From Escherichia phage MN03: a stretch of 64,000 nt of DNA. The stretch is taken from sequence record NC_070990.1; one strand, written 5' to 3'. Below, piece by piece: positions 60,113 to 64,000 of the stretch (position 1 is the stretch's first letter; each line of letters starts with the position of its first letter). The notes beneath the pieces were generated by a model. That model made no database searches. It was not told the origin of the DNA and saw nothing but the letters and a program-made list of their open reading frames with translations. The position numbers and the translations under genes are program-made.

Positions 60113-61309
60113 TTAGTAGTTTACAACAGTGCCATCATTCAGGGTAAGACTGTTAATCTGCAACACACGACCAAGCTGGCGATCACCAATCGGTGCATTC
60201 CACCCAGAGCGGTAGAAGTTACGACCACAGAAGAACAAGATCACATTACTTGCTACAGTTGAACCATTCTCAGGATGCTTGATGTTAGCGATATAATAAC
60301 CACGACGCAGATTACGACGGGTTACCGGGTTGATCTCTAACCCTTGTTCTTCAACTTGCATTGTTTCAGGAACAGGTTCCGAAGACTCTTCAGCAACTGG
60401 CTCAGCTGCCAATGCAGAGTTTTCGTCATCTGCCGATTCAGCAAATTCTTCTTCCACTTCTTCAACAGGCAGTTCGTAAGCAACGCGGTAGTCAGGATCA
60501 ACACCAGAGAAGCTCTTAACAAACTCAACAATATTGTGAGTGTAAGTTTCCAGAGTTGTTCCAGTCAGTCCCGGAGCTGTGTTAACTTCCAGAACCCAAG
60601 CGTTAGTATTTTTACTAATCAGGTCAACAGCACCGAAGTTCAAACCCAGAGCAGATACAGCTTTGTGGGCTTGAATCAGAACCTGATCAGGCGGCGCATC
60701 TTGGAAGTTTGAGGAATAAACCCAACCAGTATGATGGTTTCGAACGTCTTCACGATAGGAAGGATCTTCACGATAACCATTACGGCGAATCTTTTTCTGA
60801 ACATAGGTGATAACACCTTCAAACACATGAACACGCCATTCACGACGTGGGCCTAGAATGCCACGGGTATAGAGAGGGGCGGGAGCTACACCTTCACCCT
60901 GAAGACGAACAGTGATGCCTTCTCCAGAATGACCATTCAGAATAGCACGTTCATAAACAACACTATCCAGAGTCCACTCTGAAGCCTGAGCAGCACTGTT
61001 TGTGTATTCTACAGTATGTACCCCAGCAGCTTCCAAAGTTTGAAATGCTGTCATTTTGTTAGCGGCTCGGTTCAAGGCAACCACAGAGTTCAATACAGTT
61101 GCACCGCCAAAGAAAGAATCATTATATCGACGGTTTCCGTAGTTGACAACAATATCACCAACTCGAGAACGATAACGAGAACCCTCTGATACCAGAGACA
61201 TTACGTTAGCATTTAGTCGAAGTTCCTGAATCTTAGTGTTAATTGCAGAAGTAAGTTCACGAACTGAATCAGAAGGGCCATAAGGAAGAACACGGATACG
61301 AGTAGTCAT
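60113..61309 (-). CDS. ATP-grasp-fold ligase with acidic linker and extra C-terminal domain (398 aa)
   Basis: EWRVHVFEGVITYVQKK and GLNFGAVDLISKNTNAWVLEVNTAPGL match ATP-grasp core motifs. Confidence 0.7.
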   Translation of the reverse strand: MTTRIRVLPYGPSDSVRELTSAINTKIQELRLNANVMSLVSEGSRYRSRVGDIVVNYGNRRYNDSFFGGATVLNSVVALNRAANKMTAFQTLEAAGVHTVEYTNSAAQASEWTLDSVVYERAILNGHSGEGITVRLQGEGVAPAPLYTRGILGPRREWRVHVFEGVITYVQKKIRRNGYREDPSYREDVRNHHTGWVYSSNFQDAPPDQVLIQAHKAVSALGLNFGAVDLISKNTNAWVLEVNTAPGLTGTTLETYTHNIVEFVKSFSGVDPDYRVAYELPVEEVEEEFAESADDENSALAAEPVAEESSEPVPETMQVEEQGLEINPVTRRNLRRGYYIANIKHPENGSTVASNVILFFCGRNFYRSGWNAPIGDRQLGRVLQINSLTLNDGTVVNY

Positions 61310-61752: not shown

Positions 61753-63783
61753 TTAACCTCTATTCAATGAACATTTAGGAGAATTACAATAAACTTGATT
61801 CATAGAACCAAGCGTACAACTTTCAGCATCGCGCCACGGAATCTGCTTAAAACACTCTGAGCAGTAGCCGAGGGTTGACCACATTGCTTTGGTGAAGTCA
61901 GTGCTTCGGTTTCCGTCGAAGCTGACGACAGTTTTGCGGAGAGCTGTTCGTGATTCAGGAAACACACCTGCTTTCTCAGCAGGTTCCTCCTTTTTTGGCT
62001 TAGTTGAGATTGCAAAAATACTGTTGCTACGTTTCTCAACATAAGCATCAACAACATCCTCCAGAGTGATGCCTGTCTGTTTCGCTGAGGAAGGTAATAC
62101 AGTCATACGACCGATCATATCTTCAGTTACACGTAAAGCGAATTCAGGACGACGGGCGTTTGTTGTATCTGTTGCTTTAATCCAGACATAACCATCTTTG
62201 ATCGTAGCATTAGACACTTTCTTCTTTACTTCTACAGCGCAGACTTTACAGATATCTTCACCACGAAGACGACTAAGTTCATCATCGAACTCATTCTCTG
62301 TTTTAACTTCACCGCAGATTTCACAAACACCAATAGGAGTTTCCTCCTCTTCTTCCTCTTTAGGTTTAGTCAAACCTTCCAGACATTCAGGATGCCAATA
62401 GCACTGATATGCGAAGACTGCTTTAGGTGCATCCTTCCAATCAATGTGCTTATCACAACCACCACAATCACCATGAGAGTGCGCTTCCCAGAATTTACGA
62501 GTGATAGTAACACCATTCTTGTTGACGAAACTATCATTCATATCAAAAGGGATATCATCATCGAAGTCAGCAGTAGTTGACTCAGGCTCCTTTTTCTCCA
62601 GAGATGGGTCAACAAAACGACCTGCTGTGATCACTAAACGGACCATAGCATTGACTTCGGAGATGCAGGATACTGTCCCACGGTAAACAATTTTAGGGTC
62701 TTTCAGGGCATCCTGATAAGCCTTAATGTCTACGTTATGAACATCACCTTCGATATACTCTTGAGATTTCTCATCGTAGATATAACCAATCATCTTACCA
62801 CGAGAAGGAACAGCACCGGCAGTTGCATAAGGAACAAACTCATGCGGAGTGATTTCCACAGTCATATCGCGGCGAATATCAATGTTTCGATCGCTTGCGA
62901 TTTTGTTTTGACTTACCACTGCGTTTCTTCGACGAACGTCTGCCGCTGTCACACCCGGCTTCGTGTCGTAAGGATTGCTTGTACTGCTTTTTGAGGAACT
63001 TTGATAGTTGCTTTGGCTGTAATTGTTCGAGTAGTAATTGCCCCAACGATTGACTACCGTAAAAACCGGAAGCTCGTGGGCGACCTCTTCAACCAGTGTC
63101 ATGCTGTTATTAGACATGTCAAAGATATACTCTGTACCAACTTTACACTCAAAATGCTCATCAATACGGTTCTTGTGAGACTTCGAACGCTTCAGAATCC
63201 ACATCAGCATATCTTCTTCAGAAGCGCCAAACCAATCTCTGTTACAACGTGCGAGATGGAAAGGACGTTCTTCGTTACGAATGATATGAAGGCGGTTATC
63301 AGAAGCATCATGCCAGATTAAGGTGAAAGCACCATCCAGCTTTTGAATAGTCTCTGCTGCACCAATAGTGTTAATAGAGTGGCAGATGTTCTCACTATCT
63401 ACCTCGAAGTTTTTACTGTCAGGTAACAGGTCTTGGTCCATCAAGGTTCCATTATGAACCAGAGTGATGTTACCATGTTGGAAAGGATGGGCGTTCTTGG
63501 CGTTAACTGCACCTTTCGTTGCATGACGGCTGTGACCAACAATCCATGAAGGCGCTACAGTGTACGCTGTTTCACCAGTGGTATGCTTCTTGTACTCATC
63601 TTGTAGGATGAATGCGAAAGAAGGAAGAGCTTCTTTATAAGTGAAGACTTCCTTAGTGCTTTTACGCTGACCAAAGATACCTGAGGAATGTTGTCCTCGG
63701 AATACTCCAGCATAAAAGAGTTGGTTGAATACGTCTAAATCAGTGCTTGACAGATTACCGCCAGCTAATACGATGCCACAAAT
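61753..63783 (-). CDS. Class-II (Ntn-type) glutamine amidotransferase domain protein with ~450-aa Cys-rich C-terminal region; probable ATT start (~676 aa)
   Basis: ORF track ORF 61753..63444 stays open upstream to a TAG at 63787-63789; N-terminus (I/M)CGIVLAGG...RGQHSSGI...GHSRHATKG...AHPF...HNGTL...DSENI matches PurF/GlmS-type GATase II with Cys directly after the start; AGGTGG SD 8 nt upstream of ATT. Confidence 0.6.
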   Translation of the reverse strand: MCGIVLAGGNLSSTDLDVFNQLFYAGVFRGQHSSGIFGQRKSTKEVFTYKEALPSFAFILQDEYKKHTTGETAYTVAPSWIVGHSRHATKGAVNAKNAHPFQHGNITLVHNGTLMDQDLLPDSKNFEVDSENICHSINTIGAAETIQKLDGAFTLIWHDASDNRLHIIRNEERPFHLARCNRDWFGASEEDMLMWILKRSKSHKNRIDEHFECKVGTEYIFDMSNNSMTLVEEVAHELPVFTVVNRWGNYYSNNYSQSNYQSSSKSSTSNPYDTKPGVTAADVRRRNAVVSQNKIASDRNIDIRRDMTVEITPHEFVPYATAGAVPSRGKMIGYIYDEKSQEYIEGDVHNVDIKAYQDALKDPKIVYRGTVSCISEVNAMVRLVITAGRFVDPSLEKKEPESTTADFDDDIPFDMNDSFVNKNGVTITRKFWEAHSHGDCGGCDKHIDWKDAPKAVFAYQCYWHPECLEGLTKPKEEEEEETPIGVCEICGEVKTENEFDDELSRLRGEDICKVCAVEVKKKVSNATIKDGYVWIKATDTTNARRPEFALRVTEDMIGRMTVLPSSAKQTGITLEDVVDAYVEKRSNSIFAISTKPKKEEPAEKAGVFPESRTALRKTVVSFDGNRSTDFTKAMWSTLGYCSECFKQIPWRDAESCTLGSMNQVYCNSPKCSLNRG

Positions 63784-63862
63784 TTTCTAATCCACCTGAA
63801 GGGTAAACCCTTTCATCTAATTAACCTTTAAATTGTGCCCCTTTGTCAGAGGCACCCATTGA

Positions 63863-64000
63863 TTACAGCGCTTGCTCTAACTGATTTTCCAGATGGTCTG
63901 GAATGTACCCTGTGATATTGCTATCACTGTGACCAGACTCACGTAGTAAGTCAAAAATAGCACGGATACGTTGTTCTGGAGCGTGTCTTACTTGAGATAG
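63863..64000 (-). CDS. C-terminal end of an upstream gene (partial, start beyond window end)
   Basis: Open minus-strand frame ending ...PDHLENQLEQAL with stop at 63863-63865. Confidence 0.3.
   Translation of the reverse strand, partial: LSQVRHAPEQRIRAIFDLLRESGHSDSNITGYIPDHLENQLEQAL

Follow-up and report, generated by a model that had tools for sequence, protein, structure and literature searches.

How translation of the glutamine amidotransferase gene of Escherichia phage MN03 (NC_070990.1) is initiated, and where its unusual start comes from, is the question raised by this locus. The stretch that we analysed, referred to below as the window, comprises 64,000 nucleotides (nt) of a phiEco32-like coliphage of the genus Kuravirus, which over the 1 kb compared shares 99.2% identity with Bas90 and 96.7% with phiEco32. 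The gene lies on the minus strand, which at its beginning reads ...GCGCTG TAA tcaatGGGTGCCTCTGACAAAGGGGCACaatTTAAAGGTTAATTAG ATG AAA GGG TTT ACC CTT CAG GTG GAT TAG AAA ATT TGT GGC ATC GTA..., and its coordinates and those of its parts are collected in Table 1. Our comparison of this region with its homologues suggests, with good probability, that the amidotransferase is started at the AUU codon directly before its catalytic cysteine (Cys1) and that the leader is the surviving 3' end of a deleted HNH homing-endonuclease cassette.

Between the in-frame TAG (63789-63787) and the TGT codon of Cys1 (63780-63778), the frame contains only AAA and ATT (63783-63781), and ATT is thus the only possible initiator. 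The initial annotation had proposed that initiation must take place at this ATT, behind a Shine-Dalgarno (SD) sequence AGGTGG and a short hairpin; its coordinates, read on the minus strand, are all right, and the proposal is supported by all the comparative evidence that we gathered. It had also pointed out that the start given by the open reading frame (ORF) track would delete the catalytic domain, and indeed the first canonical start is the TTG at 63444, codon 113, while codons 1 to 111 contain not a single ATG, GTG or TTG. When the window is compared with two other phiEco32-like groups, these 111 codons present 40-42 synonymous-only differences and 22-25 amino-acid changes, and no stop codon. 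This segment is under purifying selection without having a canonical start, and it is therefore translated.

The same region would be interpreted very differently if the N-terminal glutaminase domain were a dead remnant and the product, of 563 aa and 63.8 kDa, began at the TTG at 63444, the first canonical start. The publication on phage SU10, in whose preparations the amidotransferase protein was detected by mass spectrometry, expects 63.8 kDa (PMC4281155), and three records (EK010, SU7 and BUCT695) have the gene annotated from a downstream start, while most others are blank under the leader and the first codons. The value in the SU10 table is, however, the predicted mass of the truncated ORF and not a measured N-terminus, and the supplements have no peptide list. 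Given in addition the substitution pattern and the lack of stop codons just described, which extend across genera, and the catalytic columns C1, R28, N110-G111 and D128, which are all invariant, a dead remnant is hardly credible.

At the position aligned with the ATT, homologues from Proteus, Cronobacter, Salmonella, Aeromonas and Pseudomonas phages have ATG followed by TGT or TGC and GGN, with the consensus ATG TGT GGN ATH. The 69-nt leader and the start are 98.5-100% identical in 95 Escherichia and Shigella phage records and 91% identical in two records of Aeromonas phage BUCT695. A sequencing error, which the initial annotation had itself named as a weak point, is excluded by a leader shared at this level; since the 97 records are independent, the probability that ATT or TAG is a sequencing or assembly artefact, or that a self-splicing intron restores ATG-TGT (a case taken up below with the inserts), is negligible. 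The TAG also ends other long ORFs of the window normally, these ORFs being intact under the standard code, and there are no tRNA genes in the window and hence no suppressor tRNA in it. Reassignment of the stop codon or its suppression was rejected as an explanation on these two grounds.

The locus has an in-frame AUU with an SD sequence 5-10 nt away and no canonical start able to give a functional protein, and the AUU is conserved among orthologues, namely in the 97 records and in at least ten further lineages with ATT. Only initiation at AUU would thus agree with the sequence data, and comparison supports it well. The literature that we searched contains no N-terminal sequence, toeprint or ribosome profiling for initiation at AUU in these genes.

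The position of the start depends on the identity of Cys1. The Pfam family GATase_6 matches the protein with 55 bits (gathering cut-off 27; 1.1e-14) and GATase_7 with 27.4 bits (cut-off 25). A profile of alignment A1, built from eleven phage homologues, matches the structures of the GlmS glutaminase domain (1xff, 1.5e-11) and of PurF (1ecb, 3.9e-7), and its position 1 falls on Cys1 in E. coli PurF and on Cys2 in human GFAT1. Residues C1, R28, N110, G111 and D128 are invariant in A1, and the last four probably correspond to R26, N101, G102 and D127 of PurF, judging from their position and not from a structure. In the mature protein the cysteine would come first, as its codon directly follows the only possible start. 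The domain, the Cys-first position and the conserved residues of its sequence identify the protein as a class-II (Ntn) glutamine amidotransferase. The C-terminal ~440 aa (61753-63090, minus strand) have no Pfam match. Several pairs of CxxC type were observed in that region, such as HGDCGGCDKHIDW...YQCYWHPEC, GVCEICGEV...DICKVCA and GYCSECFKQ...YCNSPKC, which suggest zinc-ribbon-like modules.

The ATT start is not new, since it is already present in curated annotation from 2008. In the phiEco32 record (EU330206 / NC_010324), the coding sequence (CDS) of phi32_83 has 2031 nt and begins exactly on the ATT, and its authors had therefore reached in 2008 the same conclusion as the initial annotation of the window. 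The records of SU10 and of the BASEL phages Bas90 and Bas88 likewise place the CDS start on ATT, and the span of the gene in the window equals the length of the annotated phi32_83, SU10_085 and Bas90_0080. When the CDS starts of phiEco32 were recomputed (n=128), 112 were ATG, 13 GTG, 2 TTG and a single one, phi32_83, ATT. Other records differ: in EK010, SU7, BUCT695, VPp1, 275E43-1 and Klyazma, an ATG or TTG further downstream was taken as the start of the gene, in models that lose Cys1 or the whole glutaminase domain, and ~40 further phiEco32-like records have nothing annotated over the leader and the first codons. No paper connecting an ATT start with an amidotransferase was found in the literature searched. 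What is new here is the origin of the ATT, the SD sequence and the hairpin, together with the observation that homing-endonuclease cassettes repeatedly leave non-ATG starts as their footprint in this family of enzymes.

To describe the start codons of the family, homologues were gathered from IMG/VR, metagenomes and genomes and anchored on Cys1; the L-numbers used below (L081, L087 and so on) are labels of the loci in this collection. In the 129 distinct N-terminal domains, the cysteine is preceded by ATG in 104 cases, by ATT in 21, by GTG in two and by ATC in one, and the remaining one has ATG TGC TGT. With this last exception, all homologues starting with ATG or ATT (125/125) have the start directly before the cysteine. 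The exceptional lineage, L038/L119, reads ATG TGC TGT GGA and would give M-C-C-G-I-V, with two N-terminal cysteines. On the tree, lineages with ATT are dispersed and parsimony requires 15 state changes in all. Most of the ATT lineages checked have an in-frame stop 2-12 codons upstream and no canonical start between this stop and Cys1. ATT is more frequent in the family than GTG and TTG combined, the opposite of normal start-codon usage. Pattern scans of IMG/VR for leaders of the GGATAG type mostly gave chance matches.

The non-ATG starts are associated with an endonuclease gene. An HNH match is absent from the upstream ORF of all 92 ATG lineages in which this ORF could be analysed; their upstream genes encode an amidoligase, a class-I amidotransferase or a gamma-glutamyl cyclotransferase. 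Overall, a non-ATG start is present in 10 of the 11 endonuclease-positive lineages and in 11 of the 104 endonuclease-negative ones (Fisher p = 5e-8), and at least eight of these 11 endonuclease-negative non-ATG lineages, the window included, have leaders resembling the end of a cassette (GGAT(T)AGnnAnATT behind a hairpin). As a control, cultured phages were searched with the endonuclease of L136, disregarding the start codon, and the six best matches were taken. All six lie directly upstream of an amidotransferase gene, and the codon before Cys1 is ATT in VPp1 and 275E43-1, ATC in Klyazma, TTG in T2S1 and WD615, and ATG in UFV-P2. The N-termini of the enzymes of VPp1 and WD615 are identical, yet one has ATT and the other TTG, which indicates that ATG is avoided rather than ATT selected.

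Three pairs of near-identical genomes among the relatives of the window, with and without a cassette at a fixed site, present the insertion directly. In the first, L081 (ATG) and L087 (ATT) have flanks ~98% identical, and L087 carries a 500-nt insert exactly after the ATG, in the order ATG|TGTGGTAG, a TTGACA-17-TATAAT promoter, AAGGAG, the ATG of an HNH ORF and AAAGGTAGGAACCTAAAATT|TGTGGAATCG. The promoter (L087:98-160) is a perfect sigma-70 consensus, with TTGACA and TATAAT separated by 17 nt. The cassette also leaves a four-codon relic ORF (ATG TGT GGT AGT TGA) on the original ribosome-binding site (RBS) of the enzyme. In the second, L172 and L175 have ATG and L173 has ATT; there a different HNH ORF (phrog_374, 5.6e-64) has taken over the original ATG, together with the ATGA by which it overlaps the gene upstream, and ends at the in-frame TAG of GGCAGGAGGATTAG AAA ATT|TGTGG. 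In the third, which involves cultured Vibrio phages, BA6/KIT05 (ATG) and WD615 (TTG) have flanks ~99% identical, and in WD615 the native 5' untranslated region has given way to an HNH cassette, behind which come a hairpin, TAAGGTGA and TTG; the cassette-free site of the BA6 type is ATG|TGTGGAATTG. A synonymous change of codon 4 from ATT to ATC separates BA6/KIT05 from WD615/VPp1 and also L172/L175 from L173, and it may be a second protective change or the result of co-conversion.

In L136, the endonuclease ORF opens with ATG TGT GG|G TGG, so that the RBS and the first 8 nt of the enzyme gene have been captured and the enzyme restarts at ATT. A tRNA-like sequence with the T-arm motif GGTTCGATTCC was observed just upstream of the endonuclease/amidotransferase pair of this metagenomic contig (L136:90-140). 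The upstream ORFs of L087 and L136 match HNH PHROGs with ~1e-19 to 1e-25 and are of the HNH_3 plus HTH type, with CxxWTxCxNxDGYP...HRxxY...RHTCDNxxCxNPxHL followed by an HTH. Intact cassettes either take over the original ATG or carry their own promoter and SD sequence. Their 3' end forms a new module of hairpin, SD sequence and start for the displaced enzyme gene, and this start is almost never ATG.

The inserts are also where the self-splicing intron has to be considered. The TGTGG repeat of L087 means that deletion of the 500-nt insert restores ATG TGT GGA exactly, as an intron would. The endonuclease ORF takes up the inserts completely and therefore leaves no room for a ribozyme, no choice of boundaries yields both a U at the end of the 5' exon and a G at the end of the intron, and no ATGTGYGG is found in the ~220 nt upstream of the gene within the window. 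No Rfam intron was detected in the window, L087, L173 or L008. A group I intron or another known RNA element was rejected, with no Rfam match of any kind in the window or the cassette loci, inserts filled by ORFs, and splice-boundary logic that fails.

The leader of the window resembles the 3' end of such a cassette. Segment 63830-63781, from TTAAAGG to ATT, is identical at 50 of 50 nt among Kuravirus, Suseptimavirus and the KBNP1711 group, in which the CDS of the amidotransferase is 76% identical and third codon positions ~52%. A single T-to-G change would restore ATG, and none of the 95 genomes has it. The device may be needed whole and unaltered, or recombination may have homogenised the segment. 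The leader appears to be related to that of BUCT695 laterally and not vertically: the two are ~94% identical in the peak 50-column window, with flanks at ~50% and CDS at 42-84%, and the enzyme of BUCT695 is 65% identical to those of the ATG-type Cronobacter phages A24 and GAP52 but only 53-57% to the phiEco32-like enzymes. The string GGATTAGAAAATT of the window is also found in BUCT695, L020, L117 and L173, and in the last three GGATTAGAAAATT|TGTGG precedes very different enzymes.

Two loci contain intermediate forms. L183 has the C-terminal half of an HNH-HTH ORF, which reads through the hairpin and the SD sequence to TAG TAA ATT TGC, and the translation of the window, NLKVN*MKGFTLQVD*, matches the KLKGKLERDLSLGED* tail of this ORF. 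BUCT695 has a dead copy, with a 29-aa N-terminal HNH fragment (3e-5), an HTH_3 ORF (5e-7, 68% identical to L183), stops and a leader of the window type. A full-length homologue search with the HTH ORF of L183 in a set of 5.8 billion proteins gave only the query itself. No homologue of the endonucleases of L087, L136, L173 and L183 was found in the window or in phiEco32; with no HNH ORF and only the 50-nt 3' tail present, the window would contain a vestige and not a cassette.

The hairpin was analysed separately. In the window it has ~-6 kcal/mol and is no better than shuffled sequences in contexts of 43-71 nt (z +0.33 and -0.99), while the 28 nt just upstream of the SD sequence give z = -2.3. 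For this same 28-nt segment, 21 independent non-ATG leaders have a mean minimum free energy (MFE) of -5.05 and a mean z of -1.62, against -1.37 and 0.02 in 104 ATG leaders (Mann-Whitney p = 2e-5), and this enrichment makes the hairpin a real part of the module. Most non-ATG leaders have equivalent hairpins of unrelated sequence that always end at the SD sequence, with stems such as CCTAGA/TCTAGG, CCCAGC/GCTGGG, GACTC/GAGTC, CCTGA/TCAGG and CTTAC/GTAAG. The stem of the window type is kept in BUCT695, with the loop TTAA, and is lengthened in L183 by a complementary A/T pair. No further copies of it were found elsewhere in the window.

The initial annotation had read regulated translation from this hairpin. 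The part of that suggestion that stands is that a hairpin abutting the SD sequence recurs statistically in non-ATG leaders; on the other side, the hairpin leaves the SD sequence unsequestered. A fold that does sequester it (GGUUUACC/GGUGGAUU) appears in the 71-nt MFE structure and was dropped, because the T-to-C change of BUCT695 (AGGTGG to AGGCGG) would disrupt the pairing arm; BUCT695 folds only into the AAGGG/CCCTT hairpin. As candidate roles, the hairpin may stabilise the endonuclease message at its 3' side, act as an insulator that keeps out ribosomes or transcripts arriving from the endonuclease gene, or help initiation at a weak codon. We also considered that a stronger SD sequence compensates for the ATT, which was not upheld, as SD strength gives only a weak trend (p = 0.07).

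An ATG at 63816-63814, absent from the initial annotation, opens a mini-ORF that ends at the TAG preceding the ATT, and two further explanations depend on it. The first is termination-reinitiation, in which the mini-ORF is translated through the hairpin and the SD sequence and ribosomes restart at the AUU 3 nt after the stop. It competes only with regard to how ribosomes reach the AUU and does not conflict with an origin from the cassette. The mini-ORF lies in frame, is preceded by AAAGG 8 nt upstream of its ATG and is conserved in phiEco32-like phages and BUCT695, although in the latter it has no SD sequence and both substitutions alter the peptide (F4L, V8A). The complete conservation of the 50 nt fits a multi-part device. 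The endonuclease ORFs of L173, L183 and L087 stop 1-3 nt before the ATT, a coupling geometry that is common in the module, but those of VPp1, WD615 and L136 stop ahead of the hairpin, at 30-45 nt from the start, and L183, L020, L117, L048, L070 and L080 have the ATT module with no upstream in-frame ATG. Because most ATT lineages lack such an ATG, coupling is plausible in the window and not general, and we regard reinitiation as unlikely.

The second explanation is read-through of the TAG from the ATG at 63816, which would produce a propeptide of 12 residues (MKGFTLQVD-X-KI) whose autocatalytic cleavage exposes Cys1. PurF of B. subtilis has an 11-residue propeptide, close in length to the 12 codons that separate this in-frame ATG from the cysteine, and the mini-ORF is conserved. 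The extension before Cys1 is, however, closed by TAG, a codon that normally ends the other long ORFs of a window with no tRNA gene; L183 has two consecutive stops (TAG TAA) at this point and L080 has TAA immediately before ATT. Most ATT lineages have no upstream in-frame ATG, and the ATG homologues have no propeptide. Read-through is therefore extremely improbable.

The origin of the AUU start from a cassette, which we prefer, can be described as follows. Initiation would occur at AUU (63783-63781), placed by the SD sequence AGGUGG 8 nt upstream, and removal of fMet would expose the catalytic Cys1. The hairpin, the SD sequence, the spacer ATTAGAAA and the ATT would not be the ancestral ribosome-binding site of the gene: a free-standing HNH (HNH_3 plus HTH) cassette would have been inserted exactly between the original ATG and TGTGG and later deleted from the phiEco32-like lineage, leaving its 50-nt 3' end. 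The target of the endonuclease is presumably the beginning of the enzyme gene, which is conserved. If the right-hand junction had an ATG, most of this target would be restored; a near-cognate codon there would keep ATG|TGTGGAATCG from being recreated and may in this way provide immunity to self-cleavage, while low-level initiation still allows the enzyme to be made. Since the vestige is perfectly conserved in the phiEco32 group, expression of the enzyme from AUU presumably now depends on the module. In its broader form, the proposal is that a family of HNH cassettes targets ATG|TGTGGNATHG, the universally conserved start of Ntn-amidotransferase genes in phages, enters between the start codon and Cys1 and carries a portable restart module of hairpin, SD sequence and non-AUG codon, the non-ATG codon (ATT, ATC or TTG) being the immunity determinant, and that the phiEco32 group has co-opted a fossil of it as the obligatory translation signal of the enzyme; this extension is put forward tentatively, as a possibility that we rate somewhat below even.

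Several points weigh against this interpretation. The evidence for an AUU start across all these genes is comparative. In E. coli reporters, AUU initiates at ~1-2% of the AUG level (bioRxiv 10.1101/063800), and enough enzyme may then require an enhancing mechanism. UFV-P2 has the endonuclease and yet an ATG start, and the immunity role of the non-ATG codon is purely something that we infer. The case for a vestige consists of a homology of ~50 nt to BUCT695 and L183, in a window that has no endonuclease gene. Some ATG leaders likewise have AGGATTA in their SD region, and the similarity could in part be that of an ordinary RBS; two different HNH families end at the same GGATTAG AAA ATT, so the leader could have existed beforehand, with the endonucleases inserting upstream of it.

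More than ten independent non-ATG starts in one enzyme family, tracking with a mobile endonuclease, are of interest because AUU starts are otherwise extremely rare; if the proposed origin is true, rare AUU starts in phage genomes can be fossils of homing events. It offers a testable reason for a non-canonical start, namely protection of the target site combined with expression of the displaced gene, and cultured pairs with and without the cassette exist in the Vibrio phages BA6/KIT05 and WD615/VPp1. In this way, a selfish gene could settle at the first codon boundary of an active site that looks essential and yet not destroy the gene. In practical terms, gene callers limited to ATG, GTG and TTG shorten or drop the enzyme, and anchoring on Cys1 is a simple rule to correct them.

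Table 1. Features of the amidotransferase start region and its surroundings in the window (positions count from the first letter of the window).
Feature	Position	Strand	Remarks
Class-II (Ntn) glutamine amidotransferase gene, phi32_83 orthologue	61753..63783	-	676 codons from ATT to stop; mature protein 675 aa, ~76 kDa
TGT, catalytic Cys1 codon	63778..63780	-	Invariant column of alignment A1; aligns to Cys1 of PurF 1ecb
ATT, inferred AUU initiation codon	63781..63783	-	Aligned with ATG of homologues; kept in 97 records
50-nt leader	63781..63830	-	100% identity across three phage groups; probable remnant of a homing-endonuclease cassette, from its 3' end
A-rich spacer ATTAGAAA, 8 nt	63784..63791	-	Holds in-frame TAG (63787-63789) and AAA (63784-63786)
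Mini-ORF ATG...TAG, 9 codons, MKGFTLQVD*	63787..63816	-	In frame; homologous to the C-terminal tail of the HNH-HTH endonuclease ORF
Shine-Dalgarno AGGTGG	63792..63797	-	8 nt before ATT; predicted anti-SD duplex -5.9 kcal/mol
Hairpin AAGGG-TTTA-CCCTT	63799..63812	-	Abuts the SD sequence
Terminator-like G+C-rich hairpin after the amidoligase gene	63835..63855	-	Upstream edge of the conserved leader; from fold
Amidoligase gene 3' end, phi32_84 orthologue	63863..64000	-	Stop TAA 63865-63863; gene continues beyond the window

Other observations concern the surroundings of the gene. The upstream hairpin at 63835-63855 has the form GTGCCTCT-GACAA-AGGGGCAC on the minus strand, follows the stop codon of the amidoligase gene and is itself followed only by a short AATTT. 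Both arms of the stem differ in its EK010 counterpart (GGGCGC...GGGCGC). A terminator is annotated in MK373770 under a 1-kb match spanning this hairpin, where a simple terminator scan made no call. Phages like 7-11 and GAP52 (Grimontviridae) and Lahexavirus LAh_9 also have a terminator-like hairpin upstream of the gene, followed by a recurring TTTAAATG(T)AA motif, which is located upstream of ATG in L006, L007, L009, L010, L011 and L026-L029. This motif resembles the phiEco32 gp36 promoter element tAATGTAtA (PMC8948821), and the window has TTTAAAGGTTAAT in the corresponding place. The minus strand of the leader has no convincing match to a gp36 promoter (tAATGTAtA; PMC8948821, PMC4331800) or a sigma-70 promoter. 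On the plus strand, a sigma-70-like match (TTGACA, 16 nt, TACGAT) at 63747-63774 lies antisense within the first codons of the gene; the count of such matches is at the level of shuffled sequences, and it is probably due to chance. Downstream, an ORF of 398 aa (60113-61309, minus strand) corresponds to an ATP-grasp (RimK-like) enzyme of an amidoligase/amidotransferase/ATP-grasp cluster. Its Pfam matches are all below the cut-offs (RimK 18.3 bits), and an acidic linker is followed by a C-terminal region of ~70 residues without a domain match.

The locus can be compared with four known systems. With phi32_83 and its SU10 and BASEL orthologues it shares the gene itself, a leader that is 100% identical over 69 nt and the same annotated ATT; there is no sequence difference, and the annotation gives no note or evidence for the ATT. 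Like the glutaminase domains of GlmS, PurF and AsnB, the phage protein has a GATase_6/7 domain, the Cys1 nucleophile and the conserved Arg, Asn-Gly and Asp, whereas its Cys-rich C-terminal region of ~440 aa is unrelated and its gene is located in an amidoligase/ATP-grasp cluster.

The AUU of E. coli infC serves the autoregulation of initiation factor 3 (IF3). Together with pcnB, infC is one of the only two confirmed AUU genes of E. coli (bioRxiv 10.1101/063800). The phage gene is like both of them in having an AUU behind an SD sequence, no canonical alternative, conservation among orthologues and a low expected initiation; unlike in them, the phage AUU goes together with a mobile endonuclease cassette and appears repeatedly, in many independent lineages of one enzyme family. 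The free-standing homing endonucleases of T4-like phages include the seg and mob genes, which undergo intronless homing, and mobE, which splits nrdA in Aeromonas phage Aeh1 (PMC2988022). In those phages, as in the relatives of the window, the endonuclease gene is sporadic between near-identical genomes and is located next to a very conserved CDS, and the flanks are co-replaced. The literature that we searched has no description of an endonuclease insertion between start codon and codon 2 with a replacement start module. The cassettes described here differ from the seg and mob genes precisely in this, namely that the insertion is located exactly between the start codon and codon 2 and that the displaced gene is supplied with a replacement hairpin, SD sequence and non-ATG start.

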